DNA of 38,966 nucleotides from Patescibacteria group bacterium (GCA_004321885.1 SCQK01000005.1:1-38966); one strand, 5' to 3'. Shown: positions 21,483 through 38,249, counted from the stretch's first letter. Made by a program: numbers and translations. Notes: generated by a model from the letters alone, not told the origin.

Positions 21483-21513
21483 ATCGCGCTCTATTATACT
21501 ATAATATCGGCGT

Positions 21514-22305
21514 ATGTTCAAACGGCTGTCTCTCCACCCCAAACTGGTGGCGGTTGTTGATACGCTCATTACCCTGGCCATGCTGTGGTGGCTGAATGGG
21601 ATGAGCTCAAAAATTGTTTTGGCGCTCTGGTTTGTTTTTCGTCTGGCCATCTGGGCCGGTTTTATAAAACTGATGTATTTTTCCGCCGGCGCCAGCCGCG
21701 CGCGCCATTTTTTGTCTTTATTGATTTTTTGCGCGGGCCTGCTGACATTTATTCTTTTTACCGAGTGGACGCCGGCGCGCCTGCTCTTTGAAGCAATTTT
21801 CGCGCTCTTTCCTTTTTTTGGTTTTTGGCTTTTGCCGGCCTCGGAGGCCGGCCTTCCCACTTTTTTGAAGCCCCATTCGCGCCTGTCGTTTATGATGTGC
21901 ATCATCGGTCTGGCCGGAATTTTCGCTTTGGTCTCCGCCATCTCATCGTTTCAACTGCTCACCAGCGTCAGCGCGTGGGTGTGGATTGTTTTAGCTTCGC
22001 TCGTCGCTACGGCCGTGGCTGGCTGGTGGTGGTTTGAGTACGGCCTGAAAGTGGACGACAAGTTTATTTCCCGTCTCGCCATTTGGTTTGTGATGTTTTT
22101 GGAATTTTTATGGGTGATTCTAATACTGCCGTTCGGATACATGGTAAATGGCCTGCTCACCATTTGGTGCTGGTATATTTTGTGGCTTTTGATGCGCTTT
22201 AACATGACCGAAGAGGGAATCAAGTGGCGCAAGCAGGCGCTGTTTCTGGTTTCAAACGTTGTTTTATTTGTGGGATATTTGCTGTTGGCGGTTAAGTGGA
22301 AATAA
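21514..22305 (+). CDS. hypothetical polytopic membrane protein (263 aa)
   Basis: multiple hydrophobic helices, W-rich; no family recognised. Confidence 0.5.
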   Translation: MFKRLSLHPKLVAVVDTLITLAMLWWLNGMSSKIVLALWFVFRLAIWAGFIKLMYFSAGASRARHFLSLLIFCAGLLTFILFTEWTPARLLFEAIFALFPFFGFWLLPASEAGLPTFLKPHSRLSFMMCIIGLAGIFALVSAISSFQLLTSVSAWVWIVLASLVATAVAGWWWFEYGLKVDDKFISRLAIWFVMFLEFLWVILILPFGYMVNGLLTIWCWYILWLLMRFNMTEEGIKWRKQALFLVSNVVLFVGYLLLAVKWK

Positions 22306-22306
22306 T

Positions 22307-23389
22307 ATGATGAATCTGCCCCCGCCCCATTTGCCCCCGCCCGCGTGCGATGTGGCCAGGCACAAGAAATGGCTGCGCGTGAAAGTAATGCTTCTCGCGG
22401 CGATTTTTGGCTTGTTCGCCGGAGTGACGGGCGCGGCCATCGTGCTGGGCTGGATTTGGCCGGGCTGGGCCGAGGGCGATACTTGGTTTGGCGGCGCCAG
22501 CCGCCCGTCTGGGTCCCGCGGCGCCCTGGAAGAACGGGTGCGCCACGAAATGTCCAGCCGGATTATTTCTGTTTATAAAAAAACCTCGCGGTTCGCCGGA
22601 GTGGATTTTTTGGCCCAAGAGGATTTTTTGGGCTCGGCCATCGCGGTGAGCTCGGACGGCTGGCTGGCGCTGTATTTGCCGCGCTATGACGGCGTCAAAA
22701 CTTTCACGGCGCTTACCGGCGCGGGCAGGATTTTGAAAATTGAAAAATATCTGTACGACCGGCACGCGGAAATTTTGTATTTGAAGGCAAAAAACAGCGA
22801 GCAATTCAAGGTGGTGATTTTTGAGGAACGGGCGGCCCCGGGCGACGACGCGTTTGTGTTTGACGGCGATTGGCGGCGGACGACAATCGGGCGCGCGGCC
22901 TGGAGCAGCCAGTTGCCGCGCCTGGACAGCGCGCCGGCGCGCTTCTTTACTTTAAGCGACAGCGGTATTGTGGCGGGCCGGGTGGCGGCCAACAGTCAGG
23001 GCAGAATTATCGGCCTTACCATGGAAAATAGCCGGCTTTTGCCCAGCGAATACATCACCCGTCTGCTGGCGGCGGTTCTGGGGCGCGGGGTGGTGGAATA
23101 CCCCACTTTGGGCGTTGAGGGTTGGTTTAGCGACGAGCGGCCTTTGCTGGCGGGCGCTAACAGAACGAATGGTTTTTTGGTCGTGCGGCTTTTGGACGGC
23201 GCTTCTGCCCCGGTCAGGGCGAGAGAGGGGATTTTGGCCAAAGGCGATATTATTTTGGAAATAGACGGCCGCGTTGTTGACAGCGGAAATTTGTGGTATA
23301 ATATTGTGGACAAAAGCAGGATAAAGTTGAAAATTTTGCGGCAGGAGAAAGAGATGGAGATGATGGTGAGAGCGGGAAAGACGAAGTGA
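22307..23389 (+). CDS. membrane-anchored HtrA-like protein with C-terminal PDZ domain (catalytic triad not clearly conserved)
   Basis: N-terminal TM (VMLLAAIFGLFAGVTGAAIVLGWIW); AANSQGRIIGL in place of GNSGGPL..IGI; PDZ-like GFLVVRLLDGASAPVRAREGILAKGDIILEIDGRVV; start ATG 22307 one nt after previous stop. Confidence 0.5.
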   Translation: MMNLPPPHLPPPACDVARHKKWLRVKVMLLAAIFGLFAGVTGAAIVLGWIWPGWAEGDTWFGGASRPSGSRGALEERVRHEMSSRIISVYKKTSRFAGVDFLAQEDFLGSAIAVSSDGWLALYLPRYDGVKTFTALTGAGRILKIEKYLYDRHAEILYLKAKNSEQFKVVIFEERAAPGDDAFVFDGDWRRTTIGRAAWSSQLPRLDSAPARFFTLSDSGIVAGRVAANSQGRIIGLTMENSRLLPSEYITRLLAAVLGRGVVEYPTLGVEGWFSDERPLLAGANRTNGFLVVRLLDGASAPVRAREGILAKGDIILEIDGRVVDSGNLWYNIVDKSRIKLKILRQEKEMEMMVRAGKTK

Positions 23390-23421
23390 AGATTCTTTAT
23401 TCTTTATTCTAAAATTTACTT

Positions 23422-24042
23422 ATGTCACACGTTTCACACACATTGCTTAAAAACGCCAGGCTGATTTTTACTTGGGGAATAATTTTCGCGCTGGCGGCCG
23501 GCGGCATCAGCCTGCTTTTCCCCAAGCAATACGCGGCTGAATCCCAGGTGCTCGTAATATCGCGCGACCGCTCCGGGGTGGACCCTTACACCCAGGTGAA
23601 ATCGGCCGAACGCATTGGCGAAAATTTGGCCCAGGTGATGAAGACCACGGATTTTTACAACAAGGTGATGGAGCTCACTGTTTATCCTTTCAACAAAGAC
23701 CGCTGGCTGAAATTATCCGAGCGCGGCCAGCGCAAGCGCTGGAAACAAGATGTGCAGGCCGGAGTGGTCTACGGCACCGGGCTTCTGGACATCACGGTTT
23801 ACAGTTTTAGCAAAGACGACGCGCGCGCCCTGTCCGACGCGGTCACGCAAACCGTGGCTTCGCGCGGCTGGGAGTATTTGGGCGGAGACGTGGCCCTGAA
23901 AGTGGTGAATGACCCGCTGATTTCGCGCTGGCCCGCGCGCCCCGACATCGGGCTTAATATTATAATCGGGTTGGCGGCCGGGGTTTTGCTCTCGGCCCTG
24001 TGGGTGGCGCGCTACAAAAAACACAGCGTGTTTGGAACATAA
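23422..24042 (+). CDS. Wzz/chain-length-determinant-like protein (N- and C-terminal TM helices)
   Basis: GIIFALAAGGISLLFPKQYAAESQVLV N-terminal TM+motif and C-terminal TM NIIIGLAAGVLLSALWVARYKK resemble polysaccharide co-polymerase (Wzz) topology. Confidence 0.5.
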   Translation: MSHVSHTLLKNARLIFTWGIIFALAAGGISLLFPKQYAAESQVLVISRDRSGVDPYTQVKSAERIGENLAQVMKTTDFYNKVMELTVYPFNKDRWLKLSERGQRKRWKQDVQAGVVYGTGLLDITVYSFSKDDARALSDAVTQTVASRGWEYLGGDVALKVVNDPLISRWPARPDIGLNIIIGLAAGVLLSALWVARYKKHSVFGT

Positions 24043-24044
24043 GT

Positions 24045-24083
24045 ATCATTCCCGCGAAGCCGCCAGCTGGCGGCCGGAATCCA
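24045..24083. repeat. family-2-related hairpin element (ATCATTCCCGCGAAGC...GGCCGGAATCCA)
   Basis: atcattcccgcgaagccgccagctggcggccggaatcca with inner palindrome gccgccagctggcggc. Confidence 0.55.
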
Positions 24084-24089
24084 GCGCTC

Positions 24090-24914
24090 ATGTCAAACGA
24101 CCAACAAAAAATCATCGCCCGCGAAGAACAGCGGCTGGAATCGCTGGCGGCGGATATTGCCAAATCCCCCAGGCCGGAATTGCTGGCCAAGACCAATTCT
24201 TTGCGCGCTCTGTGGCAGAGATGCAAAGAGGCCGCCAAACAAAAACAGGCTGACCTCAAAATTTTAGTGGAAAAATACGCCGGGGATTTTCTCTCGTTGA
24301 AGTGGGAGGCGGATAAGGCGCGCATTGCCCCGCCGCCGGCCCGCGCGCTGTCGCCGGCGGAAAAAATTATTTTCTCACTGCTCAAAAGAGAGTGGCTGCC
24401 CTTCAAATCCCTGCTTTGCGAAGGCAAGCAGGAGGCGGCGAAAAAATGGATAGTGAGTGTGATAAATTTTTGTCTGAAAGAAACAAATCAGGAGGCGGGA
24501 AAATGGAGTAAAGAGGCGGAGGCCATTGCCCAAAAAGCGTGCGACACGGTGTTGGCTTTGGCCAACGAGCAAAAACACAGAATTAAAGACGGTTTTTTGA
24601 AAAAAATATTCGGCGGCCGGAGCGACGCGGAAAAAATAGCCGAGCTGATACGGCGCGATTTTATCACCCCGGGCCAACTGGCCGAACTGGTGGCCGGCGA
24701 AGTGAAAGCGATATTAAGCCAGCCCTTGCCCGCGGCGCTCGCCGACGCCAAACCTGTCATTCTGGCTCCCGAGCCGGAATCCATCGCGGGAATCCAGAGC
24801 GCATTGGAGACGAAGGAGATAATTTCGGAAGAGGCGGCATCAGCGGACGACTGGGGCGAGGACGAAGACGACAAAGAGCCCTGGGAGCAGGGCAAAGAGG
24901 GGATAGCGGGCTGA
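24090..24914 (+). CDS. hypothetical alpha-helical protein with acidic C-terminus (275 aa)
   Basis: ORF 24000..24914 trimmed to ATG 24090 after the hairpin element; stop overlaps next start (ATGA). Confidence 0.5.
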   Translation: MSNDQQKIIAREEQRLESLAADIAKSPRPELLAKTNSLRALWQRCKEAAKQKQADLKILVEKYAGDFLSLKWEADKARIAPPPARALSPAEKIIFSLLKREWLPFKSLLCEGKQEAAKKWIVSVINFCLKETNQEAGKWSKEAEAIAQKACDTVLALANEQKHRIKDGFLKKIFGGRSDAEKIAELIRRDFITPGQLAELVAGEVKAILSQPLPAALADAKPVILAPEPESIAGIQSALETKEIISEEAASADDWGEDEDDKEPWEQGKEGIAG

Positions 24915-25381
24915 TGTATTTTATGTCAGAAAGCAAACCACGGCGGCCGGAATACGAGGCCAATGTCATAGAAAAACTGAAAGGGTGGATTCAGCAAGAC
25001 TCTAAAGCGCTGGAGCGGGCGCAGGAAAGTTTAGTAGAATTTGCCTACACGAATAATAAGGCGGAGCGGCTCGCGCGCGAACTGGGCGAGCCCGGCGAAC
25101 CCACGCCCGAAGAAATAGCGGAAGTTTTGCTTAATTTGGCTCGCGCCAAGAAAGCCTTGCAAACTTTGAAAGAGAGCGCCATATCCCATCTGATAGACGC
25201 CGAAAGCATAGAATTGGCGGAAGTGTTGCGGGAAGCCGATGAATTGATTGATAAAATTGACGCTGACAGAAAAATTTTAGCCAAGAGCGGCGGTGATTGG
25301 GAAAAAGTGGCGGGGTTTGCGAAATTTGATATAGCAGCGGCGGTTAAATTGCTGGAAAAAGCGCGAGCCATTAAAATTTAA
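24914..25381 (+). CDS. hypothetical helical protein (155 aa)
   Basis: start overlaps upstream stop (translational coupling). Confidence 0.5.
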   Translation: MYFMSESKPRRPEYEANVIEKLKGWIQQDSKALERAQESLVEFAYTNNKAERLARELGEPGEPTPEEIAEVLLNLARAKKALQTLKESAISHLIDAESIELAEVLREADELIDKIDADRKILAKSGGDWEKVAGFAKFDIAAAVKLLEKARAIKI

Positions 25382-25402
25382 ATAATTTTTATTAAAAATA
25401 AT

Positions 25403-25726
25403 ATGCCAGCACAGCCAAAGTTTGATTTTCTCATAGAATATATCCTCGGTCTTTTGGAAAAAAATAATATCAATCTCACCGCAGAGCAGAAAAAAATTTA
25501 CGTACCGCAAATTTTAGCGCAGGTGGAATTGCGCTTGGGTCTGAAACTTCTGCCGCTGTTAAACGAGAAACAAAAAGATAAGTTTGTTAAATTAATGAAT
25601 CACGACAAAACGACCCCGACCGAGTGGTCTGATTTTTGGCACGAGTCCGTGCCCACTTTTGACGAAGATGTGCAGACTGTTTTAATGGAATTTGCGGAAA
25701 AAGTAAAAACAATATTAGCGCAGTAA
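25403..25726 (+). CDS. hypothetical protein (107 aa)
   Basis: ORF; followed by family-1 element and strong hairpin. Confidence 0.45.
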   Translation: MPAQPKFDFLIEYILGLLEKNNINLTAEQKKIYVPQILAQVELRLGLKLLPLLNEKQKDKFVKLMNHDKTTPTEWSDFWHESVPTFDEDVQTVLMEFAEKVKTILAQ

Positions 25727-25735
25727 CCCTACGGA

Positions 25736-25763
25736 CATCCCTCCCTTTTAGGGGAGGGGCAGG
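25736..25763. repeat. family-1 palindromic element (catccctcccttttaggggaggggcagg)
   Basis: inverted repeat ccctccc-tttta-ggggagggg. Confidence 0.75.
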
Positions 25764-25793
25764 CCACCACACCAAAGATTTTGGTGTGGTGGC
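25762..25793 (+). terminator. 12-bp hairpin (gccaccacacca-aagatttt-tggtgtggtggc)
   Basis: perfect 12-bp stem immediately after family-1 element. Confidence 0.5.
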
Positions 25794-25812
25794 AGAGGGT
25801 GGGGTTTGATGT

Positions 25813-26010
25813 ATGATAAAAAAAAAGGAAAATAATTTAAAAAAATTGTCCGCGCGCTACCAGCGGCTGTCTTCTTTGTATCAAAAATGGCAAAAGGAAT
25901 TGGCAGAAATAGAGCGTGAAGAACGCAAAATAAAGAAAAAAATCTTTGATTTAGCGGACCAAAAAAAGCGCGCTCAAGTTTTGAGTTTTATCAACAAGAC
26001 CGTACAATAA
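25813..26010 (+). CDS. small coiled-coil hypothetical protein (65 aa)
   Basis: K/E-rich heptad-like sequence; in operon context. Confidence 0.35.
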   Translation: MIKKKENNLKKLSARYQRLSSLYQKWQKELAEIEREERKIKKKIFDLADQKKRAQVLSFINKTVQ

Positions 26011-26024
26011 TTTTTCAATTTTTT

Positions 26025-29000
26025 ATGGTTAAGCCTGGTGATAAAAACGAAAAAGCGAAACCCGCCCCCAATAACGGCGAGGCAAATTTTACGGCGGAAA
26101 ATAAAATGATTAGAGCGCGAATTGAGCAGTTGTTTTCTGAATTGAGCGCTCTGGCGCAAGAGGTGCGCAAAAGACCGGGAATGCAGTCTGAACTTAATCA
26201 AATGCTTGAAACTCTTGCTAAACAGGAAACCAAAATCTCCTCATTGGATAAAGATAAGGTTGCTGAATTAGAAGAGGAATTGCAAAAATTGGAAGAGAGA
26301 ACACAGGAGTTAATTGATGAGATGAAAGAAGAAGAAAGGTTATACAGGGAAGAAGAAGCGCCGGACGCGGTGGATTATTCCAAGGAAGACAGCCAGGAGC
26401 GGCGACAGAGGCTGCTTAAATTTGGCAAAGACCTGAAAGAAATTGTTGATTTTTTTGAGCAGGGAGCTAACAATGACGCGGAAAAAATATTTTTGCAAAG
26501 CGCCATAGAATTATTGGAGGAAGGCAAAAAATTGGATATAACCGCCATGAACCATCCACTCGCAAAGCAATTGCCCGACGATTGGTTTGTGGATGTTGAC
26601 GCGTTCGTCAATAAAGCAAAACAACTGTATACAAAGTTTTCAACGTATAAGTTTGAATATGCTAAAAAGATAGTTCCAGGCGAGCCTAAGCCAAAAGAAC
26701 CGGTAAAACAGGAAGCGCCGACAAAGGAGAGCGAGACACCCGCTTCCACGGGGGCGGAAGCCGCGAAAGAAGTTCCGGCGTATTTGAAATTGGCCGCCGA
26801 GGTGGAGCGCATGGGGTTGGAATTAAAAGAGGCGCTTGATTCACCCAAAGCGCCGGCGGTGAAAAAGAACGCCATCAGGCTCGTTTTAGAAATGGCGAAT
26901 AAGCCCGGTAATGTTATTTCCAGGGTAAAGGACAATAATAAATGGGTTAAGGCGGCGCAAAATTGGTTAAGTTTGGCAAGAACGGCGCTGGAAGAACAGG
27001 CGCCGGCGGTACCCGCGCCGGCTGATGCCAAAGCCGCGTCAAATAATGAAAAAAATAAAGCAAAGAGCGACAGCTTGCTTTTCAACAAGTTGGTCCGGCA
27101 TCTACACGAAAAATTCAGTGATTTATTAAAATCAGATAAGGCTTTAATAAAGAGGCTTAAGGGACTGAAAAAACTTTTTGGCTACCCTGAATTTGACGGA
27201 GAGTTTGTTTCGCTCCTCAAAGACCTTGGCGTTAATCCGGATGATGTCAAAAAAATTGTTATAAAAGAATCCGACCGGAAGGATAAACGCGAAGAAAAGG
27301 AAAAAGGAAAGAAAAAAGATTACAAGTTTGAAATCAAAGGCGCGCGCCGGATTTTACGGGATGCCGTAAAACTGATTAATGACCCTGAAAAAGCCAAACC
27401 ATACAGAAAATTAATCGGGCAACTTGGCGAATTTAGTGAAATTTTTAACGCGCTTAGGAAAGATAAATTAACAGACCAAAAAAGGCAAGAATTGCAACAA
27501 AAAAGAAAAGATTTGCTTCATAAAAAACCCGATGGAATTTTCACGCAGGACGCGCAAAACAGCGATTTGCTGGAGAATGCGAAAAGAATAATCGCGTCCG
27601 CGGCCGGCGCCGTCCAACCCAAGCCCGGCAAATCGCCGAGCGCCGTGAAAACAACCGGCGCCGCTTCTACTCCGGCGCCCGCCAAGACACCCGATGCTCG
27701 GACAGTTGCAGCACCGTCTGCCCCGCGCGCGCCCTCACTAGCTCCGCGGGTGGATACGGGCTCGGCGTCGGCCGCGGCTGTGGACACGGCTCCGCCCGCG
27801 CCTCCGCCTCCGACGCCGCCCGACACTGCCCCACGCGAACCAGAACCAGAACCAGAACCAGAACCGCGCCCGGTTAAAAAAATTATTGACATCAAAGAAA
27901 CAGCGCTTTTGGAATTGATGAAACCGCACAAATTGCAGGAGGTTGTCAATCAGTTGATTCAGGGCAACGCGGCTGTCGCCGAAACCCTGTTTAGCAATAT
28001 CTTCGCGCGCGACGATGTTGATTTAGAAAGATTGCGCGAAGTGGTGGGACAGGACGGCTACACATCGGAAGAATTCAAAAATCTGTGGCTGGAACAGCTT
28101 CATAAACGCCCGTTTCGGATGATAAAAGACAATTTGGAACAGATGACGCGGAATTTTATCGCGCAAAACACCGGTAAAATAGAAAAAATTATACAAAAGT
28201 TGCCGGCGGCGAAAGCGATTATTCTGCAGGCATTGCCTTATCTGGCCATCGCCGGCGCCGGATTTTTTGCGGCCTTGACAGGCGGCGGCATTATCGGGCT
28301 TACCGCGGCCGGCGCGGCTTCGGGTCTTTGGCGCGGCATTTCCAAAAAAGTGGAAGGCGTGCGCGGCTGGATTTCCAAAAAAACCAAACAATTCAAGCAA
28401 AAAGGAGACGAAAGAGAGGCCTATAAAGAAAAAGAACAAAGAGAAGGCCTTTTGTTGATGCGGGATTTGATGGCGCAGTTTAATAATAATCAGGAATTGC
28501 TTTCCCAGTTGTCGTCAATGATCAGCCAGGGCTTGCGCGAGAGCAGCGCCCAAGAACGCGCCGAGTCTTTGGGCAAAGACAGAAACACAATTATCGCCAA
28601 CGCGGAACTGGCCATCGGGCAAATAAAAGAAAAATCCGAAGAAGAATACAGGCATGGTATTGGCAGAAAAGGCGAGGCAGACGCGCGCCTTGATAAAGAA
28701 AGCCAGGGCCGGCGCGCCGAGGCGCTTATCATGAAATTATACGAAAGCAACGAGATGGAAGATTTGATCCAGGAAGCCCTGCAAAAAGACCCGAAATTTA
28801 TCAGAGTACTAAAGGGAATAAACGCCTTGAAAAGTCTTGATTTGGATGAACTGGTTGAATCAGCCACGGGCAGGCGCGCTGATGTTGCCAAAAAAGAAAG
28901 CACCCTGAAAAAAGTCGCCTGCATCCTTGCTTCCGGAATTGCCGGCGGCGCCGTGGCCTATGGCCTGTCGGCGCATAATGCCTGGAGGCCGGTGGTAGCT

Positions 29001-31361
29001 GGTTTGGTCGGCGCTTATTTGGGCGCCAGATTTGGGCATCATCGGGAGATTAAGGCCCGCCAGCGTGAGTTCGCGGCCGAGTTTGAAAGAAATGTGGACG
29101 AGGCAGAGCAGGTTATCATAGAATACGAGGCCGTTACCGATTTAGCCGCGTGGCTGGGTGCTGATGGCGAAGAAAAAATTCGTCAATTGCAAAACAGGGC
29201 CAGAAAGTTGCGCACTCCTTTAACCTTGGGCATGCTGGACGATAATAAGCCTTTGAAATATCGGGCGCAAAACGCCTTGCGGCGCGTGGAAGCGATTTGG
29301 CTGACTATTTATTTGAATAATTCGGATATAGGTATAACAAGAAGAACATTTGACCCGGCTGTGGAAGGACCGGAAGGCGCCAGTGAAAGAGATGTGCACA
29401 CAGATAGCGCCGTGGAAAATTTGCTTACAGTCCTAGACAGGGAAGTGGAGATTCTTACCGAGGACCAAAAAGAGGTAAAGGAAACATTAACCAAAAAACC
29501 GGGCTGGTGGAAAACTTTTGCTTGGAGTCTTGCCGGCGCCGGGGGCGCGGGATTGCTGGCTTATGAAATACAGGGTTGGCGGGAGAGCGGCAAAAAATTG
29601 GACGAAGCCGGCTTTATGCCACAAGAGGAACCGCCGGCAAGCGGAGGCAGGGGAGACGCGGCTGGCGCGGCAGACACGGCCAGGGCCGCGAAAGGACAGA
29701 TAAAGCCGTTGCCCGGCGAGATTGAATTTCATCCGCCAACGGCCACTGAAAAGAGTCGGGTGTTTTTGGAAAATATGGGCGCCAAGCCAGGGGCTGGCAA
29801 TAAATTTACCATTGAACTTGGCAAAGGCGAGACGCCGGCAAACAAGTCGGAATTTTTCCGTTTGCTGGCTTTGAACGGAATGAAAGGTAAAGTGCTGGGT
29901 GATGACGGAGTTTTATCGCCTCTGGAACAAGGCAAGGTGTTGAATGTGGGCAGGAATATGCTGGAATTGGCTGGCGGGGCCAAAGCGCGCGGCGGTTTGC
30001 CGCTGGCGGATTTCAAAGAGCATTTCAGTATGAAAGGCAATAAAGTTACCATTACTGATTTTGATAAATTTCAGGAAAAAATAATCGGCAAATTGTCGGC
30101 GCACGCGGATGAAAAATTTACCAAGCAGACCATGGCCGACACGCGCGCCGGAAAAATGACCGCTATAAAATACGGGGCCCGCGCCAACTGGGAAAAAGAT
30201 TTTGCTAAAATTGGTTATGAGGCCAACGCGCCCCGCGAGCATTTTGTTGTGCCCGAAGACGTGAAAGATATAAAAGATGAAGTAGTTGACCCGGACGCTG
30301 GCAAAGCGCCGGCAGACGCGCCCGAAGCTCAGGCCGCCACCAAACCTGAACAGGTTTTTGAAGTGGACAGGAATGTATTTGGAGTGGAAAAACACCTGGA
30401 ACTCACAAACAGCGAGACAAAAATCGTTGACGCTGCCATTCGCAAAATGGATTGGATAGCGAATAAAACCCATCTATCCGGCGATGGGCTGGAGAATTGG
30501 AGCAAGGCCTTTGGAACGATGGATGACGCCATGGACCGCCTGCAAACAAATCTTCACGACCCGGATTCTTTGGCAAAGTTAAAATATATTGGTTCATTAT
30601 CAGCCGCGGAACTAAGCAAAACACCCGACACAAAATTTGCCGCCATAATAGACAATATTAAAGGCGGGTCAAAAGGAGGCGGGGGAGGGGCTGATGAAAT
30701 TGTCCAAAAAGGCGGCAAGGCCAAGGTGGCGGCGGTTGAGGCGGCAGAACCAAAAGCGTCTGAGTGGATCGCGGGCCATAAAGCGGCCGAATACCAAGAA
30801 TTTGTTGATCGTGTTAAAGGCGGTAGGGATTTGTTTGTGAAAAGAATGATAAAAACATCCGGAATTAGTGAAGGTAAACTTGATGAACTCTTGCAAAAAT
30901 TTGCGCGCGGGCATAAGGGAATAAATTTGACTAACGCTGAAACTGAAGAAAAGTTTCGGACTTGGCTGGCCATGGAATTGGAAGAGTCAGGAACCGCGTC
31001 AGCGGCAGTAACGGAAAAATTATCCACAGCCAACCCCGTGGCCATAGGCGAAGCCAAGGGTGGGCAAAAGTTGGTACAATTTTTGGACAACAAAGGCAAA
31101 ACGCGCTCCTTGGAAATAGCTGAAAAATTTGAACCCAAGAAAGGAGAAAAAGGAATTGTTTCGCTCGTCATGGACATTACGGACAAAAACGGCACGTATC
31201 AAGCGCGTCAAGACGGAAAATTTGAAATGAGAATGATAGGACACAAAAAAATGCCGGTGTTTGTTATTAGTAAAATGGAGGGTGAGGGAAGCGCGGCAAA
31301 GGATGTAGAGCATATTTACGCTATAAAAAATAATGGTCGTGAGATAGTATTGCAGAAGTGA
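26025..31361 (+). CDS. giant hypothetical protein (1778 aa): N-terminal coiled coil, Pro-rich linker, three central hydrophobic segments, ~800-aa C-terminal region
   Basis: single uninterrupted ORF with consistent codon usage; hydrophobic segments LPYLAIAGAGFFAALTGGGIIGLTAAGAASGLW, VACILASGIAGGAVAYGLSAHNAWRPVVAGLVGAYLGARFG, WWKTFAWSLAGAGGAGLLAYEI; PEPEPEPEP linker. Confidence 0.7.
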   Translation: MVKPGDKNEKAKPAPNNGEANFTAENKMIRARIEQLFSELSALAQEVRKRPGMQSELNQMLETLAKQETKISSLDKDKVAELEEELQKLEERTQELIDEMKEEERLYREEEAPDAVDYSKEDSQERRQRLLKFGKDLKEIVDFFEQGANNDAEKIFLQSAIELLEEGKKLDITAMNHPLAKQLPDDWFVDVDAFVNKAKQLYTKFSTYKFEYAKKIVPGEPKPKEPVKQEAPTKESETPASTGAEAAKEVPAYLKLAAEVERMGLELKEALDSPKAPAVKKNAIRLVLEMANKPGNVISRVKDNNKWVKAAQNWLSLARTALEEQAPAVPAPADAKAASNNEKNKAKSDSLLFNKLVRHLHEKFSDLLKSDKALIKRLKGLKKLFGYPEFDGEFVSLLKDLGVNPDDVKKIVIKESDRKDKREEKEKGKKKDYKFEIKGARRILRDAVKLINDPEKAKPYRKLIGQLGEFSEIFNALRKDKLTDQKRQELQQKRKDLLHKKPDGIFTQDAQNSDLLENAKRIIASAAGAVQPKPGKSPSAVKTTGAASTPAPAKTPDARTVAAPSAPRAPSLAPRVDTGSASAAAVDTAPPAPPPPTPPDTAPREPEPEPEPEPRPVKKIIDIKETALLELMKPHKLQEVVNQLIQGNAAVAETLFSNIFARDDVDLERLREVVGQDGYTSEEFKNLWLEQLHKRPFRMIKDNLEQMTRNFIAQNTGKIEKIIQKLPAAKAIILQALPYLAIAGAGFFAALTGGGIIGLTAAGAASGLWRGISKKVEGVRGWISKKTKQFKQKGDEREAYKEKEQREGLLLMRDLMAQFNNNQELLSQLSSMISQGLRESSAQERAESLGKDRNTIIANAELAIGQIKEKSEEEYRHGIGRKGEADARLDKESQGRRAEALIMKLYESNEMEDLIQEALQKDPKFIRVLKGINALKSLDLDELVESATGRRADVAKKESTLKKVACILASGIAGGAVAYGLSAHNAWRPVVAGLVGAYLGARFGHHREIKARQREFAAEFERNVDEAEQVIIEYEAVTDLAAWLGADGEEKIRQLQNRARKLRTPLTLGMLDDNKPLKYRAQNALRRVEAIWLTIYLNNSDIGITRRTFDPAVEGPEGASERDVHTDSAVENLLTVLDREVEILTEDQKEVKETLTKKPGWWKTFAWSLAGAGGAGLLAYEIQGWRESGKKLDEAGFMPQEEPPASGGRGDAAGAADTARAAKGQIKPLPGEIEFHPPTATEKSRVFLENMGAKPGAGNKFTIELGKGETPANKSEFFRLLALNGMKGKVLGDDGVLSPLEQGKVLNVGRNMLELAGGAKARGGLPLADFKEHFSMKGNKVTITDFDKFQEKIIGKLSAHADEKFTKQTMADTRAGKMTAIKYGARANWEKDFAKIGYEANAPREHFVVPEDVKDIKDEVVDPDAGKAPADAPEAQAATKPEQVFEVDRNVFGVEKHLELTNSETKIVDAAIRKMDWIANKTHLSGDGLENWSKAFGTMDDAMDRLQTNLHDPDSLAKLKYIGSLSAAELSKTPDTKFAAIIDNIKGGSKGGGGGADEIVQKGGKAKVAAVEAAEPKASEWIAGHKAAEYQEFVDRVKGGRDLFVKRMIKTSGISEGKLDELLQKFARGHKGINLTNAETEEKFRTWLAMELEESGTASAAVTEKLSTANPVAIGEAKGGQKLVQFLDNKGKTRSLEIAEKFEPKKGEKGIVSLVMDITDKNGTYQARQDGKFEMRMIGHKKMPVFVISKMEGEGSAAKDVEHIYAIKNNGREIVLQK

Positions 31362-31411: not shown

Positions 31412-31439
31412 TTGACAGTCGCATTATTTATGGTATCTT
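31412..31439 (+). promoter_or_regulatory. candidate promoter (TTGACA-16-TATCTT) at low-GC/high-GC boundary
   Basis: cttgacagtcgcattatttatggtatcttt; followed by hairpin cccaaaacagg-tgtttttggg. Confidence 0.35.
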
Positions 31440-31600
31440 TACCTGTTCCCAAAACAGGTGTTTTTGGGTATAAATAATATAGTCTTTGAAAATTAAAGTA
31501 GGTTTGGCGCTTGGCGCCACAACAGGGCAACGATAAGGACGTGCCCTAACAGCGAGCCACGACAAGGACGAGCTCGCAAACGGAGAGAATGGAGAGAGAG

Positions 31601-33487
31601 ATGAGCGATGAGAGAAACGAGGGAAGGAGCCCCCTCTGGAACGGCTCCCGGGACGAGGGCCCGCAGCGACCCCACACACCAACGCTTGATGGTCTGGTAG
31701 CTGTGGTCGACCAGCCGGAGGAGCAGCCCGCACTGCTTCATTGCCCGTGCGGGTGGCAGGTGTACTCGCGGGCTACGGCGAAGATAGCCATGGTCAGCAA
31801 CTCGTGTCCGCTGACCGGAGACGAGCTGGCCCTGACGGTGGAGGATGTTGCGAAGCTCGCGGACGAACTTCGCGATGTCCACGCCTTCCCCATCCGCACC
31901 TTCTTTCAGAAGGTGCAGTTCCCGGTGACGGTCGTCTGCGACTGCGGCGACTCGGAGCTGGAATTGGTGGAGAGCGGGGTGGAGGAGGAGTGTGTGAAGT
32001 GCCGCCGGCACTATGTCATTACCGCGGACGCGGAGATGTACATGGTGATTGACAAGAAATTGGCGCGGCCGGACACGCTCCGCACCGGCCAGCCCGTGGC
32101 GCCCACGGCTTCGGGTGAGGTGGACTCGCGTCCGACCATCGCGCCGGCCGGGCCCGACGAGGAAACGCGGGTCGGAGAGCCTGTCCCGCTGGTGGAGACG
32201 TCGGACGTCCCGGACGACGCCCAGACCAGCGAGCGCGTTTCGCCTCCGCCGGAGGAGTCTGGTCATCAGATGGTCCAGGCGCCGGACGCCGACCCCTCGG
32301 ACTTCGAGGGCAAGAGCCCGACGGCTCCTGGCGTAATACCCGAAGAGGAGCTGGTGGCTCTGGAGCTGATGGCTTCGTTGGCAGCGGCCGCCAGCGGTCC
32401 GGCCCAGGGCCCGGCTTTTGACCAGTCGGGTATGGCCGTGTTGGACGTGAACTGCCCGGAGTGCAGAAGGGTCTTCACGGTCAATCGCGAGCTGGGTGCG
32501 GCGATGTGTCCGCACTGCAGGGCCGTGTTTGAGGTTTTGGTAGCGGGCGGCCGGGTTGAGTTTGTCCGGTGCGTGGTGCCGGGCAACAAACTGCCTCCGC
32601 CCACCCCGCTCGACGCGGGCGGCAGAACCCAGCAGGGCTTTGTCTCGCCCGTGCCGCCGAGGCAGGACCCGCCGACGTTGGATCAGCCCCTCGCCCAGCT
32701 CGATGTTCTTCGGGACAAGAGCCGCGAGAGGTCACAGCCCGGCGAGTCCGAGGCGTCTGCGTTGCCAGCACCCGCGGAGGCGATTCCGCTCTCCGCCATC
32801 GCGGCGCCGACCGGCGTCGGACCGAGCTTCAAGCTGGTGGACGTCTCCCGGGCGCGTTTGCGCGCGAGCGTCAGTCTCGGCCCGAAGGACCGACAGTCAA
32901 CGGGCGAGATTCGCCCAGCGGCGCGTCGCCTGCCTCGCTGGGTCCATGGCGCGTTCGGCGTGCTCGGGCTCGGATTCTGTGTGCTCTTGGGGATAGTGCT
33001 GAATCAGGGCGCTCTCCTCAAGGAGAACACGCGGCGGAGCCAGGCGGCCGAGCAGAAGAGTGCCGCGGCCGAGGAGCAGAGCAAGGCCGCGGCGAAGGAT
33101 AGTGCCGAGGCTGTGCTCAAGAGCGCGCGGGCCGAAGTTGAGGCCAAGACCGCCAGAAAAACGGCGGACAAGGCCAATACCCGATTGGACACGCAGGAGG
33201 CGGCGCGCGAGAAGCTGGACAAGGAGCTCGCCGCCAGCGCACGGTCTGTCGCCGCCTTCCAGAAGGCGACGAATACGGCCATTGGGAACATCAAGGGCCA
33301 GGTCGCTAGACAGAGTGCTGATCTGCGTCAGACAATCGCAAGGGCGCAGGCAACGCTTGACCAAATCAAGCGCGACCTGGCTTCGGCGAACGCGGCGCCC
33401 GCCAAGCGCGTCCCGCCATCGTTCCTACCCGCCAAGGTTCCCAAGATGCGCCCCCCGGATCACCTGATACGGCGTCGCAACGACTAA
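31601..33487 (+). CDS. zinc-ribbon (MJ0042-like) / single-TM / C-terminal coiled-coil protein, GC-rich
   Basis: three CxxC...CxxC pairs (HCPCGW..SCPLTG; CDCGDS..CVKCRRH; NCPECRRVF..CPHCRAVFEV); TM VHGAFGVLGLGFCVLLGIVL; A/K/Q-rich coiled coil; GGAGAGAG SD before ATG 31601. Confidence 0.55.
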   Translation: MSDERNEGRSPLWNGSRDEGPQRPHTPTLDGLVAVVDQPEEQPALLHCPCGWQVYSRATAKIAMVSNSCPLTGDELALTVEDVAKLADELRDVHAFPIRTFFQKVQFPVTVVCDCGDSELELVESGVEEECVKCRRHYVITADAEMYMVIDKKLARPDTLRTGQPVAPTASGEVDSRPTIAPAGPDEETRVGEPVPLVETSDVPDDAQTSERVSPPPEESGHQMVQAPDADPSDFEGKSPTAPGVIPEEELVALELMASLAAAASGPAQGPAFDQSGMAVLDVNCPECRRVFTVNRELGAAMCPHCRAVFEVLVAGGRVEFVRCVVPGNKLPPPTPLDAGGRTQQGFVSPVPPRQDPPTLDQPLAQLDVLRDKSRERSQPGESEASALPAPAEAIPLSAIAAPTGVGPSFKLVDVSRARLRASVSLGPKDRQSTGEIRPAARRLPRWVHGAFGVLGLGFCVLLGIVLNQGALLKENTRRSQAAEQKSAAAEEQSKAAAKDSAEAVLKSARAEVEAKTARKTADKANTRLDTQEAAREKLDKELAASARSVAAFQKATNTAIGNIKGQVARQSADLRQTIARAQATLDQIKRDLASANAAPAKRVPPSFLPAKVPKMRPPDHLIRRRND

Positions 33488-33572
33488 CCGAGCGCTCTTT
33501 CCGCGGCGTGTGTGAGTATGTAAGCAGAGGTGAATGAAAATTCCTTCCGCTTCCCTCCCACTCCACACGCCA

Positions 33573-33620
33573 ATCCCCCTATGATTCCAAATTTTGGAAT
33601 TATAGGGGGATTTTTGTTTT
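33573..33620 (+). terminator. long palindrome + T-run (atccccctatgattccaaa-tt-ttggaattatagggggat TTTTGTTTT)
   Basis: near-perfect 19-bp inverted repeat followed by U-run, downstream of zinc-ribbon gene. Confidence 0.55.
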
Positions 33621-33631
33621 ATTCAAATTTT

Positions 33632-33652
33632 CCTCCCCTATTAGGGGAGGGG
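33632..33652. repeat. family-1 palindromic element in GC-rich segment (cctcccctattaggggagggg)
   Basis: identical core to copy at 1507. Confidence 0.8.
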
Positions 33653-33711
33653 CAAGGGGTGGAGTTTTACCTTTATCTTAGCCAAAATTCGTTCTCTTAT
33701 CGAAAAATCTC

Positions 33712-33740
33712 TTGACAGAAATACCGAACTGTGCTATTCT
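33712..33740 (+). promoter_or_regulatory. sigma70-like promoter (TTGACA-17-TATTCT)
   Basis: cttgacagaaataccgaactgtgctattct upstream of ORF 33787/33892. Confidence 0.45.
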
Positions 33741-33891
33741 TAACAGTTAAAATCAAATTAGTTTCAATGCGCGAGAGAGGCATTGTATGAGGATTTCACT
33801 CATCAAGCCACTCCCGCGTCCACGGGTTTTTTTCTTTACAATCGTCTCTGACATTAGTAATGCCGGAGCACAACAAGAAAGGAGGCCAGGA

Positions 33892-34515
33892 ATGGCCGAT
33901 GAACCGAAAGTCATCGTCGAGGTAGACAAGGAGTGTCTTTTTTGCAAGCGGGACATCCCCCAGCTCCAGGAGGAGCTGGCGGGTGTGAAGAAGTTGCAAG
34001 AGGCGCAGGAGGACGCGGTCGGTGGCAGTTTGCGCCGACTGCGTATGGGTATGACGGCCTTCGCGGTCGCGTTGGCGTTGATTGTCGTCATCAGTCTTGT
34101 TGTGGTTTACATCCGCCTGACCGAGACGACGGGCCAGCGCGCCGCTCCGGTTCCCAGCCGGCTGGTCCAGCGCTTGTCCCAGACAGAACAGCGTCTGGGC
34201 AAGCTGGAGGGGACCATCGGGCTTTTGAAAAGCGCGATGGAGAGGCTTGCGGAGCAGTTCGGAAAGGTGCTCTCCGACATCACCAAGATGCCGAAGGCAT
34301 CACAACCGCCTGCCTCCCAGCCGGTGGTCACTGCGCCGCCGCTCCGGACAACGCCGCTTGTCAAGACGGCCAAGCCGAGTGAAAGAGAGGGCCTGTTGCC
34401 CTGCAAGCAGGAGAAGGAGTCCTGCGTAAAGGGGAATGAAGGTCGCGTCGGCAAGGAGAGGGCCCTGCAGTTTTGCGCCACTTTCTTCAGACAGGGAGGG
34501 CCGAACTGCAAGTGA
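33892..34515 (+). CDS. hypothetical TM + coiled-coil protein, GC-rich (start could be 33787)
   Basis: AGGAGG 6 nt upstream of ATG 33892; TM AFAVALALIVVISLVVVYI; coiled-coil segment. Confidence 0.45.
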   Translation: MADEPKVIVEVDKECLFCKRDIPQLQEELAGVKKLQEAQEDAVGGSLRRLRMGMTAFAVALALIVVISLVVVYIRLTETTGQRAAPVPSRLVQRLSQTEQRLGKLEGTIGLLKSAMERLAEQFGKVLSDITKMPKASQPPASQPVVTAPPLRTTPLVKTAKPSEREGLLPCKQEKESCVKGNEGRVGKERALQFCATFFRQGGPNCK

Positions 34516-34598
34516 GTAGGGTCTCCTCACCGCCACGCCGCATTCCAGCCGCCGAGACCCATCCAACCCAATGTATATGACTGTTATTTCGGTACGCT

Positions 34599-34630
34599 AT
34601 GTCATTCCTGCCATAAGAGCAGGAATTTAT
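34599..34630. repeat. family-2 hairpin element in GC-rich segment
   Basis: tgtcattcctgccataagagcaggaattta; upstream flank cccaatgtatatgactgtt shared with copy at 35575. Confidence 0.7.
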
Positions 34631-34873
34631 CACCGGAATTCACGGTCGTATACAGTGAATTTGGAAGGAACATTACAATAAGCGAAATGAGCGAGTAAAT
34701 AATTTTGCTTGCAAAATTATTTCGAGCGAATGAGCTTTATATCATTGATATATTCTGGTTCGCAAAAAGGACAGGTGTCATTGCGAGCGAAGCAATCCCG
34801 TCTTATTTGCGACCCAGAATTTCAACCCGGTTTCCGCCTGCTGGACGCAGGCAAAAATGAAAGGAGGCACATT

Positions 34874-35470
34874 ATGTGCCGTCTGATCGGAGAGCTCGAC
34901 GGCGAGCTGTTCGCCGTCGAGCTGAACAAGCTCGGCGCTGTCCCCCCCTCCCCCAACCAGCCCCCGGCGGCCCCGCCCCGGCCCGGCGGCGGCGCCCAGC
35001 CGCCCGTTGGCGCGGGCGCGCCCCCCGCGGGCGCGTGCAGGGCCACGCCCTGCCGGTTCTCGTCGTGGCTGATCATTGCCGCGGTGGGGCTGGCAGCGGT
35101 GGCGATCATCATCACGATGATCGCCCTGCGCGACGGCAAGTCGGCGCAGGTCGCGCCCGCGGTCGCCCCGACCAAGTCGGTGCCGGCTACTCCGGCTGCC
35201 GCGGCCGCGACGCCCGCCAAGCCGGCACTCCCCCCCAATCAGATTGGCGCCCTGCCGGTCTACGGGGGCGGCGTGCACCTCCCCAGCATCACGCTGGAGG
35301 TCGCTCGCCCGCCGGTTGCGCCCGCGCCGGTCCTACCGCCCTTGGCCCCGCCGCCCGCGCCGAGCGCGGCGTTCCCGTCCTGTGACCAGGACGCGGAGTG
35401 CCTCGCGCTTGTCGCCGCCCACGGCGCCGGCGCCCGCCCCCGCTGCCCGCAGTTCTTCAACTGCCGGTAG
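34874..35470 (+). CDS. Pro/Ala-rich single-TM hypothetical protein
   Basis: AAAGGAGG SD 6 nt upstream of ATG 34874; TM WLIIAAVGLAAVAIIITMIAL; PA-rich low complexity. Confidence 0.45.
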   Translation: MCRLIGELDGELFAVELNKLGAVPPSPNQPPAAPPRPGGGAQPPVGAGAPPAGACRATPCRFSSWLIIAAVGLAAVAIIITMIALRDGKSAQVAPAVAPTKSVPATPAAAAATPAKPALPPNQIGALPVYGGGVHLPSITLEVARPPVAPAPVLPPLAPPPAPSAAFPSCDQDAECLALVAAHGAGARPRCPQFFNCR

Positions 35471-35574
35471 CGTGCGTCACCCCGCCGGGCCTTGTGGCTC
35501 GGCCCCTCCTTTCAACCCAGGGTCGGACATTCGCCTCGCGACTGTCCGACCCTTCCATCCCAATGTTTACGATT

Positions 35575-35603
35575 GTCATTCCTGCCCACGAGCAGGAATC
35601 CAC
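35575..35603. repeat. family-2 hairpin element (tgtcattcctgcccacgagcaggaatcca)
   Basis: same arms as 4621 copy. Confidence 0.7.
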
Positions 35604-35671
35604 AATGGCAAACATTGATAGTGGAGTACATTACAACACTCACGGTGTGAAGTTATCTGCCCCTCCTCACT

Positions 35672-35696
35672 CCTCCCCCTTTATAAGGGGGGGAGG
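35672..35696. repeat. family-1 palindromic element (cctccccctttataagggggggagg)
   Basis: inverted repeat in GC-rich segment. Confidence 0.8.
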
Positions 35697-35941
35697 CGGG
35701 GAGGGGGTATAGCTCCACCCCGTGAGAATTATCACGGTTTGATATAGCAACCAGGCCGATTTCTTCAAACGCAAAATCCCCACCCATGTGGGACCGCGAA
35801 CCGCTGTATATACCCCTTTGGACCAAAAGTCCGAAAACGGGAAACAGCGCAAGCGGATAAGAAGAAAACGGCTTAGCAAGTTCATGAAGTATAGGCCGGC
35901 CCTGCACGCGCGAGCGGAGGGTCAAAAAAAGGAGAAGAACG

Positions 35942-36793
35942 ATGTTGAAGATGGTTGCGGCGATGATCGCCGCGCTGTACATCCTCGCGGTGAGTGCCAC
36001 CTCGGCGCTCGCCCAGAACACCCCCCCCGCGGCGGTCGCTCCGGCCGCGAAGTCATCGGCGATGCAAATCGCCGACCTCACCCTGAAGTTCGAGAAGGCC
36101 GAGAGCGACATCGCGTCGCTGAAGGCCAAGCTCGCGGCGCCGGCCCCGACCGCGCCAGACGGCAAGGCATTGTGCCAGTTCTGGGCACCGTGCAAGAACG
36201 CCGTCGCCGACGAGGCGGGGAAGATCCAAACGGTGATCAAGACCATCAAGGTCAAGATTGCCGACCCATCTCTCCTCGCCAAGCTCCGCCTGGCGGAGCT
36301 CGAGCTCGCGAAGCTCACCGAGCGGCTCGGCGCCCAGGCCGGGCTGGCCCAGCACAACGCGGAGGCCGCGAAGGGCCAGCTCGCGCTGGCTGGTCAGGTT
36401 CTGGCCATGGGTCAGCACCCGGAGCTCGCGAAGTACGCGCGGTGTCGGGGCGGCTTCAAGCTCAGGACCACGGTCTACACGCCGACGAGTTCAACCCTTT
36501 CGCTCGACTGTGAGCGAGAGGTTGACCTCGCGCGGGTGGAGAAGGTGGAGGGCCCGCTCGCCGCTGCCCAGGCGGCCGCGGCCGCTCGCCAGCCCCTCGC
36601 GCCCCCACCCGCGCCGGAGAAAAAGTCCGGCCGGTGCGGAACCGGTTGTATCATCGCGGCCATCACGATCCCGGCTGCGATCGTCGGTGCCGTGGTCGTC
36701 GGTGCTCTGCTCGCCACCCGTGAGGACCACAACACGGTGGTGACACCGACGAAGACGACCTCCGCGCTGAGCATCCGGTTCAAGGGGCTGTAG
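35942..36793 (+). CDS. secreted coiled-coil protein with signal peptide and C-terminal TM anchor
   Basis: AAGGAG SD before start; signal peptide MLKMVAAMIAALYILAVSATSALAQ; C-terminal TM CIIAAITIPAAIVGAVVVGALLA. Confidence 0.5.
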   Translation: MLKMVAAMIAALYILAVSATSALAQNTPPAAVAPAAKSSAMQIADLTLKFEKAESDIASLKAKLAAPAPTAPDGKALCQFWAPCKNAVADEAGKIQTVIKTIKVKIADPSLLAKLRLAELELAKLTERLGAQAGLAQHNAEAAKGQLALAGQVLAMGQHPELAKYARCRGGFKLRTTVYTPTSSTLSLDCEREVDLARVEKVEGPLAAAQAAAAARQPLAPPPAPEKKSGRCGTGCIIAAITIPAAIVGAVVVGALLATREDHNTVVTPTKTTSALSIRFKGL

Positions 36794-36980
36794 GCTGTAG
36801 ATAGTACACACGCGTCTCTGAGACATTGCGCGTGCACTCCCAATGATCTGTACAACCGATCCCAATCGGGCGTACAGTTACGGGAGGGTCTCGCCATTGC
36901 GCACGCGCAATGGCTCCCAATTATTTTCCTATGCTACGCATGGGGAAATTGAGGGAATAGATCATTACAACAACAAACTG

Positions 36981-37000
36981 CCTCCGCCGATAAGGGGAGG
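36981..37000. repeat. degenerate family-1 element (cctccgccgataaggggagg)
   Basis: partial inverted repeat upstream of lipoprotein gene. Confidence 0.4.
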
Positions 37001-37032
37001 CGCAACAGTTGTTAGAAAGAGAGGAGGTCGCC

Positions 37033-37890: not shown

Positions 37891-38148
37891 GGAGAACACA
37901 ACCGCGCTATACGCGGGACCGCAGCGATGCGGAACCACAATCACCAGCGCGTAAAGGATAGAATTGGCCGAGCGGAGATTAACCACATTTTTCGCTCGGC
38001 CGCTGTACTTACCGCATAATATTTTTGTGCGGTGGGTATGGGGGAAAAATTCATATGACGCATTTAACCATCTCTCTCCCGCCAATTTATTTGGCGGAGT
38101 GACTAAATGCTTCAGTTGAATGCCTTGTACTGAAAAGTAAAAGGCAGG

Positions 38149-38175
38149 AACCACCCCAACAGGTGGTTTTCTTTG
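38149..38175 (+). terminator. hairpin + U-run (aaccacc-ccaaca-ggtggtt TTCTTT)
   Basis: 7-bp stem followed by T-rich tract ~75 nt upstream of second lipoprotein gene; may be terminator/attenuator. Confidence 0.35.
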
Positions 38176-38249
38176 AAAAATGAAACAAACGCCTCAACCG
38201 CATGGGCGGAGAGGTGCAACCGATTGTAGAAAAAGAGAGGAGGTCGCCA

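Follow-up and report, generated by a model that had tools for sequence, protein, structure and literature searches.

The window analysed here is a complete contig of 38,966 nucleotides (nt) from a Patescibacteria metagenome-assembled genome (MAG; GCA_004321885.1, SCQK01000005.1:1-38966), and its main element is a gene at 26025..31361 (+), identified by ORF (open reading frame) scan and by its homologues, that encodes a giant protein of 1778 amino acids (aa). The giant (NCBI hypothetical protein EPN28_01250) belongs to a family of giants that share a helical core with five putative membrane helices of the glycine-zipper type, and its gene closes a conserved run of genes; two small genes of this run, encoding a DUF5663 protein and a protein of about 65 aa, accompany it in two genomic contexts and form a trio with it. 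The giant core, a further domain named C1 and the arrangement of the trio have no counterpart among the families, folds and systems described so far, and represent a new family and a new locus; the components with known relatives, one Wzz-like and one HtrA/PDZ-like, are peripheral to it. The first-pass annotation of this DNA, which had proposed a candidate novel system, was right on this point. As to its role, we tentatively favour, at somewhat less than an even chance, a vertically inherited, lineage-specific envelope module in which the giant would be an envelope-spanning scaffold with two cytoplasmic partners.

The ultra-small Patescibacteria account for much of the diversity of bacteria, and the ways in which they build their envelope and contact other cells are mostly obscure; the majority of their large membrane proteins are orphans that carry no annotation. 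The locus offers a testable object, in that the family has a conserved core, small partners of its own and a topology that can be predicted, and recurs in two contexts. Should the locus encode a scaffold or conduit across the envelope, it would add a new type of machine to those known from bacterial cell surfaces and would mark the lifestyle of one clade; if its products do not interact, a new family of the Pfam type and a context that links DUF5663 to a function would still be gained.

The giant protein and its family

The family was found by an exhaustive HMMER scan of 1.84 billion representatives with aa 600-1778 of the giant as query. The scan returned 32 proteins, which are giants of about 1100-3100 aa except for a few of 64-913 aa that are probably fragments of giants. 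The giant ORF is genuine and not due to chance, because its core matches other giants (best match E 5e-95) and because uninterrupted giant ORFs of up to 3100 aa, besides some that are cut by contig ends, are found at the same position in independent assemblies.

The N-terminal region of the giant (aa 1-530, 26025..27614), delimited by composition, is charged, poor in Gly and Pro and without a signal peptide. It is followed by a Pro/Ala-rich linker (aa 531-615, 27615..27869; from sequence and composition), whose end carries the PEPEPEPEP run (aa 605-613) already noticed as a Pro/Glu linker in the first-pass annotation. The conserved core (aa 616-1190, 27870..29594), delimited by the family alignment, is all-helical and contains hairpin 1 (aa 729-768, 28209..28328), hairpin 2 (aa 963-1003, 28911..29033) and a fifth membrane helix (aa 1161-1183, 29505..29573), all three predicted from hydrophobicity and from the Lys and Arg residues (K/R) of their flanks, and hairpin 2 also from the alignment. 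Three Gly-rich transmembrane-like segments had been described earlier; Gly-rich hydrophobic clusters are indeed present, in the form of two hairpins and one single helix. The region past the fifth helix measures about 595 aa, not about 800 as first estimated, and includes the alpha/beta domain C1 (aa ~1240-1430, 29742..30314), which is predicted to be exported and is common to a second, more divergent set of giants, and the C-terminal end (aa 1431-1778, 30315..31361), which is without relatives and for which a low-confidence model gives helices followed by a terminal beta-rich segment. A search for internal repeats in the giant found none. All these regions lie on the + strand.

A region-by-region dissection revealed how little of this architecture is shared. 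About 24 relatives have only the core (aa 616-1190) in common with the giant and 7 have only C1; four of these 7 match a core profile upstream of their own C1 domain, and therefore the order core-then-C1 is old. Neither aa 1-615 nor aa 1441-1778 match any relative, and even the closest ones, at 37% core identity, show no similarity to the giant outside the core; the N- and C-terminal regions turn over completely within the family. Two relatives carry a recognisable domain N-terminal of the core: a PP2C domain in P0017 (aa 263-520) and a WipA-like phosphatase domain in P0020 (aa 788-1002).

In the core alignment of 19 family sequences, the shared part comprises about 560 aa with the motifs IIDIxE, FGYT..EF..W, SQxLRxxS, GALAGGYLG and LRxPLxLGLL...RAxNVLRRIE; the giant has what defines the family, that is the core motifs, the five Gly-zipper helices and a DUF5663 gene upstream. 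Among the 11 invariant columns are 5 Gly, 4 of them in membrane helices, and 1 Arg at the turn of hairpin 2, and the most conserved stretch of the family also falls in hairpin 2 (consensus GALAGGYLG, AGLVGAYLG in this giant). Judged by the alignment, constraint on the giant is strongest in its membrane helices. An AlphaFold2 model of the core built on the same alignment is all-helical (predicted TM-score, pTM, 0.62), and its soluble helices reach a predicted local distance difference test score (pLDDT) of 80-93, so the soluble parts are confidently predicted to fold as a single helical domain.

The orientation of the giant was approached by counting K+R, in the 19 family members, in the 15 residues that flank the hairpins on the outside and that precede helix 5. 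The outer flanks of both hairpins and the stretch before helix 5 have a mean of 3.1-4.6 K+R, versus 0-1.1 within the hairpins (loop plus partner helix). For example, hairpin 1 has a loop of 1-4 residues nearly without K/R and flanks that average 3.1 and 4.6, and helix 5 has a mean of 4.1 upstream and 1.6 downstream. According to the positive-inside rule, K/R-rich flanks face the cytoplasm. Because of this charge distribution and of the rule, we infer that the N-terminal region and the soluble core of the giant would be cytoplasmic and its C-terminal region exported. The position of the PP2C and WipA-like domains, N-terminal of the core, fits a cytoplasmic N-terminal side.

The giant and the 274-aa, 155-aa and 65-aa proteins encoded upstream of it have no match in Pfam, NCBIfam, PHROGs, PADLOC or PDB sequences, apart from generic coiled-coil-type matches of the 65-aa protein in the Pfam, NCBIfam and PHROG scans. 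When the core, the C-terminal region and DUF5663 served as queries, profile searches of PDB sequences returned no significant match; the top one, to CagI/Cag19 (E 0.006 over a helical stretch), was judged to be chance. None of the six proteins encoded by the run first described matched an enzymatic family, as the first-pass annotation had said of enzymatic motifs, and nothing specific was found in the literature on DUF5663, on Wzz-linked clusters in Parcubacteria or on giant genes in the dcw (division/cell-wall) cluster of Patescibacteria. In the library searched, neither DUF5663 nor the present gene set is mentioned by any paper.

Partner genes and gene order

An ORF scan of the window places the giant gene at the end of 8 abutting + strand genes that span 21514-31361. 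The one-strand run 23422-31361 of the first-pass annotation has the layout described there, with abutting or overlapping genes and gaps of 0-86 nt; the junction reported as ATGA at 24914 is actually TGATG (24912-24916), with a one-base stop/start overlap. The conserved unit begins two genes earlier, at 21514, and two conserved membrane-protein genes (21514..22305 and 22307..23389) had been left out of the original set. On its upstream side the unit adjoins rplT, infC, smpB and the transfer-messenger RNA (tmRNA) gene ssrA, on the - strand.

Related loci were collected from species-representative genomes and from a metagenome scan, both with a six-sequence core subset as query, and from contigs encoding DUF5663 homologues or giant relatives. 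In a first context, rplT-infC-smpB (- strand) precedes a six-gene order composed of a ~255-263-aa membrane protein, a ~350-aa PDZ-like protein, a ~200-aa Wzz-like protein, a ~105-113-aa DUF5663 protein, a protein of 60-68 aa that is not always present, and the giant. This order is found in 8 distinct loci, several of which were recovered from more than one assembly: L001/L020, L002, L005, L007, L012 (the locus of the WipA-bearing relative), L013/L014 (that of the PP2C-bearing relative), L022 and the P0007 contig, whose giant has 3100 aa; L008 and L010 have the same order, cut by contig ends. The order is kept at core identities down to ~26-30%. The outcome that the first-pass annotation had considered fatal, homologues scattered without a conserved neighbourhood, is therefore not what the related loci present, and its idea of a non-metabolic, envelope-associated gene set around a genuine giant membrane protein is supported. 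The MAGs of L001, L002 and L004 are labelled 'uncultured Gammaproteobacteria bacterium'; their locus and ribosomal neighbours are of Patescibacteria type and the label is probably wrong.

In a second context, the DUF5663, ~65-aa and giant genes directly follow mraZ-rsmH-ftsL (L004, 4955-13405). The same post-ftsL position is taken by DUF5663 and giant genes in L017 (5695-13040), and in L018/L019 by a 125-aa gene, a 62-aa gene and a giant, behind another giant ORF (L018 172-13103, two giants in tandem). Because the trio occurs in both genomic contexts, DUF5663, the ~65-aa protein and the giant constitute the minimal travelling unit; the three membrane-protein genes would be a second, context-specific layer. 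The locus is neither mobile nor a known defence system: no relevant PHROG, PADLOC, BFVD or IMG/VR match was found at it, and the only PADLOC match among all eight products is non-significant (E 0.0022, 107-aa protein).

The DUF5663 protein (107 aa, 25403..25726, +) bears the precomputed Pfam annotation PF18908, as do all 14 homologues found; in our own Pfam scan it scored 18.9 bits against a cut-off of 23.7 (E 0.0024), and it can be regarded as a borderline but consistent member. It is acidic, without signal peptide or transmembrane (TM) helix. Close relatives share 65-71% identity with it and distant ones 31-51%, and 14 residues are invariant among 13 sequences; it is far better conserved than the giant and is the most conserved of the putative partners, and this conservation fits a protein that may bind the conserved cytoplasmic core. 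In all loci that reach far enough upstream its gene lies directly upstream of the giant or with only the ~65-aa gene between, except in L018/L019, where the slot is filled by the 125-aa gene, without detectable DUF5663 similarity. The second small partner is basic (65 aa, isoelectric point, pI, 10.2; 25813..26010, +) and predicted to be helical. In L004 and L018, homologues of 62-64 aa (37-39% identity) follow the upstream small gene and precede the giant; the genes of 60-68 aa that fill this slot in L010, L012, L013 and the P0007 contig are not matched directly to the 65-aa protein by BLAST and are linked through one another.

Two further genes separate the Wzz-like and DUF5663 genes in the window, encoding acidic proteins of 274 aa (24090..24914, +; 304 aa if the GTG at 24000 is the start) and 155 aa (24914..25381, +). 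Neither the related loci nor the giant relatives contain a counterpart of either and, as far as this comparison goes, the two are not part of the conserved set; they were also compared with giant N-termini, of which they might have been fragments, and no similarity was found. Of the four helical hypothetical proteins that the first-pass annotation had placed in the operon, then, these two are seen only in the window, and the DUF5663 and 65-aa genes recur. Its three acidic mid-size proteins are acidic indeed (pI 5.2-5.5, with 5.5 for the 274-aa protein).

The outer layer opens with a polytopic membrane protein of 263 aa (21514..22305, +), recognised by hydrophobicity and synteny. A hydrophobicity scan gives it ~7-8 hydrophobic helices, and it has no Pfam or NCBIfam match; orthologues at the same position have 50-52% identity in L001, L002 and L020 and 32% in L022, and genes of 254-263 aa fill the slot in L007, L008, L013 and the P0007 contig. 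The next product is membrane-anchored (360 aa, 22307..23389, +) and was assigned by weak family matches and synteny; it has an invariant N-terminal PHLP motif, one TM helix and an exported domain that ends PDZ-like. NCBIfam degP_htrA_DO matches it at aa 261-374 (E 3.4e-7, far below the family cut-off), PDZ_6, PDZ_2 and PDZ do so at E 0.012-0.07, below their cut-offs, and it aligns locally with the PDZ regions of HhoA and ZO-1. It resembles the membrane-anchored HtrA/DegP proteases in the N-terminal anchor, in its local similarity to the end of the protease domain and in a putative C-terminal PDZ-like domain, but differs from them in its scores and in having no His/Asp/Ser triad conserved in an alignment of 8 orthologues, nor a Pfam trypsin-domain match. 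Because the catalytic triad is not conserved, it is probably a catalytically dead pseudo-protease.

The third protein of this layer (206 aa, 23422..24042, +) matches Pfam Wzz PF02706 above threshold (29.9 bits, cut-off 25.5, E 6.9e-7) and has two hydrophobic TM helices (aa 11-35 and 174-199) with an exported loop of ~135 aa between them, in agreement with the Wzz-like double-TM protein of the first-pass annotation; NCBIfam polys_exp_MPA1 matches it weakly (aa 3-194, 23 bits versus a cut-off of 296). Orthologues with 45-59% identity stand directly upstream of DUF5663 in L001, L002, L020 and L022, Wzz-annotated genes of 196-203 aa occupy the slot in L005-L010, L012 and L013, and the matching 199-aa gene of the P0007 contig has no Wzz match on record. 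Wzz proteins belong to the polysaccharide co-polymerases (PCP), which form oligomeric rings. The two TM helices around an exported domain, the score and the Pro-rich PLISRWPARP directly before TM2 liken the 206-aa protein to the short PCP-2b type (CpsC/CapA-like); it differs in that no tyrosine kinase, flippase or polymerase is adjacent and in that its conserved neighbours are the DUF5663-giant trio, not glycan genes. In the window, whose contig ends before the position at which L013 and L018 have Wzy_C, no Wzy polymerase, Wzx flippase or bacterial tyrosine kinase (BY-kinase) adjoins the Wzz-like gene.

Possible roles of the locus

In the envelope module that we favour, the giant would span the membrane, anchored by its two glycine-zipper hairpins and fifth helix, with the N-terminal region and the helical core in the cytoplasm and the fast-evolving ~600-aa C-terminal region, C1 included, outside the cell. 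DUF5663 and the ~65-aa helical protein would be dedicated cytoplasmic partners, either assembly factors or subunits. In this genome the trio would be co-expressed with three outward-facing membrane proteins, the polytopic one, the dead HtrA/PDZ-like one and the Wzz/PCP-like one, and all products would join one envelope-spanning assembly that links the cytoplasm to the surface, as an envelope or division-site scaffold or as the base of a cell-contact surface structure. An envelope or division role is favoured by the mraZ-rsmH-ftsL link, the vertical inheritance and the fused Ser/Thr-phosphatase domains; a cell-contact role is favoured by the hypervariable ends, by an adhesin-like island downstream of the giant and by the giant surface proteins of episymbiotic bacteria of the Candidate Phyla Radiation (PMC8080830). 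The attachment or cytoskeletal function suggested in the first-pass annotation stays conjectural, and one independent clue, the presence of the trio in the division/cell-wall cluster, speaks for envelope or division scaffolding no less than for attachment.

Known scaffolds offer partial parallels. EzrA and MapZ are membrane-anchored scaffolds of division and envelope, and MapZ has an exported C-terminal part. The giant is similar to them in its long helical cytoplasmic part tethered to the membrane, in an exported C-terminus as in MapZ, in the link with the division/cell-wall cluster and in the Ser/Thr-phosphatase domains of some relatives; it differs in having five membrane helices instead of one, in being several times larger and in that no sequence or fold similarity was detected between them. 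On the side of cell contact, Vampirococcus lugosii has membrane or surface giants that exceed 1300 aa, have a predicted membrane location, are specific to their lineage and evolve fast, with WD40, PKD and other interaction domains (PMC8080830). The family described here resembles them in size, predicted membrane location, lineage restriction, fast evolution and occurrence in organisms thought to be attached to other cells, but it has no recognisable interaction domains and possesses a conserved cytoplasmic helical core, glycine-zipper helices and dedicated small partner genes. A bolder form of the cell-contact role is that the giant oligomerises through its invariant glycine-zipper helices into a pore or conduit, held by a Wzz-like ring and assembled by DUF5663 and the ~65-aa protein, for docking and for exchange of material or effector domains (e.g. 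the fused phosphatases) with a partner cell, the island supplying variable adhesins; we give this version little probability.

Several observations weigh against an envelope-spanning module. The Gly-rich helices have pLDDT <50 in the AlphaFold2 core model and are only moderately hydrophobic (Kyte-Doolittle 1.4-1.8), and the stable insertion of the glycine-zipper helices in the membrane of the producing cell is no more than predicted. None of the family members showed a recognisable exported domain, whether for adhesion, for peptidoglycan binding or of another kind. Moreover, the content of the unit varies: the ~65-aa gene is absent from four close relatives (L001, L002, L005, L007), and the window carries the two extra genes (274-aa and 155-aa) inside the unit. 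Finally, the rplT-infC-smpB block is just as syntenic with the unit in relatives, so that gene order by itself says little in favour of the outer, membrane-gene layer; the order of the three upstream membrane genes could reflect shared ancestry, not function. The variable content and the equally conserved housekeeping block also favour another explanation, in which at most the giant and DUF5663 would form a functional unit, and the remaining, unrelated envelope genes are adjacent through slow rearrangement in one clade. This we regard as unlikely, in view of the tight one-strand packing, with overlapping stop and start codons, of an order that holds at 26-30% core identity, and of the relocation of the trio, together, to another context.

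The same membrane helices can be read differently, as those of a delivered effector or translocator that inserts in a host membrane with its N-terminal region facing the host cytoplasm, DUF5663 and the ~65-aa protein being its secretion chaperones. Chlamydial Inc proteins and some type III/IV substrates have bilobed hydrophobic hairpins and insert in host membranes. The giant is like the Inc proteins in its paired, moderately hydrophobic helices with very short loops and in that the two flanks face one side of the membrane; a large substrate-like protein directly preceded by small acidic and basic helical proteins that move with it would suit a substrate with its chaperones, and the hypervariable N- and C-terminal regions would suit an effector. 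The WipA-like phosphatase domain was first described in a Legionella effector, and in relatives it and PP2C stand at the N-terminal side; a VirD4/TrwB-like ATPase and an SLT-domain protein are encoded upstream in the window. Yet other-strand housekeeping genes separate the VirD4-like gene from the locus, the genes upstream of rplT differ between loci and, in relatives, the locus has no secretion system associated with it. The giant is also far larger than Inc proteins, its conserved part is a soluble core, unusual for an effector, and its charge distribution fits ordinary insertion in the membrane of the producer; delivery to a host is distinctly unlikely on this balance. An accessory role in Wzy-dependent surface-glycan assembly, with the Wzz-like protein as co-polymerase and the giant and its partners organising or regulating the process, would account for the Wzz match, the PCP topology and the Pro-rich stretch before TM2, and it is in line with the Wzy_C genes that lie downstream of the giant, within a few kb, in L013/L014 and L018, the ~470-aa membrane proteins that flank the island in L001 and L002, and MraY and other envelope genes in the window. 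It is hard to reconcile with the trio of the mraZ-rsmH-ftsL context, which has no Wzz gene at all; variable islands separate the Wzy_C genes from the unit, and in the window the unit has no glycosyltransferase, flippase or tyrosine kinase as an immediate neighbour. We give this role little probability. Phage tape-measure proteins are very long and helical, with glycine-rich hydrophobic segments, and the giant shares these traits and is preceded by small proteins, one of which, the 65-aa protein, has a non-significant PHROG tape-measure match (E 0.0087). A tape-measure protein or another mobile-element remnant is nonetheless close to refuted: the giant has no PHROG match, no structural match in BFVD at E <0.2 and no relative in IMG/VR contigs, there are no phage genes nearby, and the gene keeps a fixed chromosomal position by housekeeping genes in many genomes.

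The GC3-rich island and other features of the window

Downstream of the giant, a stretch rich in GC at third codon positions (GC3) occupies 31589..38966 (+) and runs to the contig end; it is associated with the locus by position. The GC content of the window is 0.56-0.69 from ~32 kb to the contig end, versus ~0.43-0.56 upstream, and the + strand genes of the island have GC3 of 0.72-0.87, signal peptides and lipoboxes. A GC-rich island lies directly 3' of the giant in six distinct loci: the window, L001/L020 (9600-12300 in L001), L002 (13400-15900), L003 (5700-9782), L013/L014 (16200-22400 in L013) and L022 (12600-16749). Across loci the island GC is 0.56-0.74 and the gene GC3 0.72-0.98, versus ~0.45-0.7 for the other genes of the genome. 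The GC jump at ~32 kb is not due to a chimeric assembly, because flanks of normal GC are found on both sides in L001, L002 and L013. The genes, on the strand of the giant, encode lipoproteins and other exported proteins, of which some contain thrombospondin type-3 repeats (E 4.8e-64) or Dicty_CTDC Cys-rich repeats, and their content is non-homologous between loci except for L001/L002. Minus-strand 'genes' of the L013 island proved to be spurious frames, the real ones being on the + strand with GC3 0.85-0.98. With a codon usage foreign to the genome, the island looks like a recurrent hot spot for the acquisition of foreign surface-protein genes, possibly from partner organisms.

Between the giant gene and the island, a promoter-like site (31412-31460, +) is composed of TTGACA, a 16 nt spacer and TATCTT with an upstream TG, directly followed 3' by a hairpin and T-run; no Rfam family matched it. 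On the other side of the unit, the tmRNA gene (20630-21043, -, 130 bits) is directly downstream of smpB, whose ORF (21036-21941, -, 301 aa) is over-extended: the SmpB domain is in the last ~145 residues, and orthologues have 148-165 aa. The SLT-domain protein (401 aa) and the VirD4/TrwB-like coupling ATPase (591 aa) are encoded at 16349-19395 (+), 2-5 kb upstream of the unit, and the pair is not kept beside the locus in relatives. Farther upstream, a 700-aa polytopic membrane protein with ~14 hydrophobic helices (13271-15373, +), which has no match in Pfam or NCBIfam, precedes HIT and NUDIX genes. The ftsL gene of the window (4609-4989) is followed by genes for a 131-aa membrane protein and a 926-aa ClpB-like AAA+ protein (5370-8150), and then by mraY.

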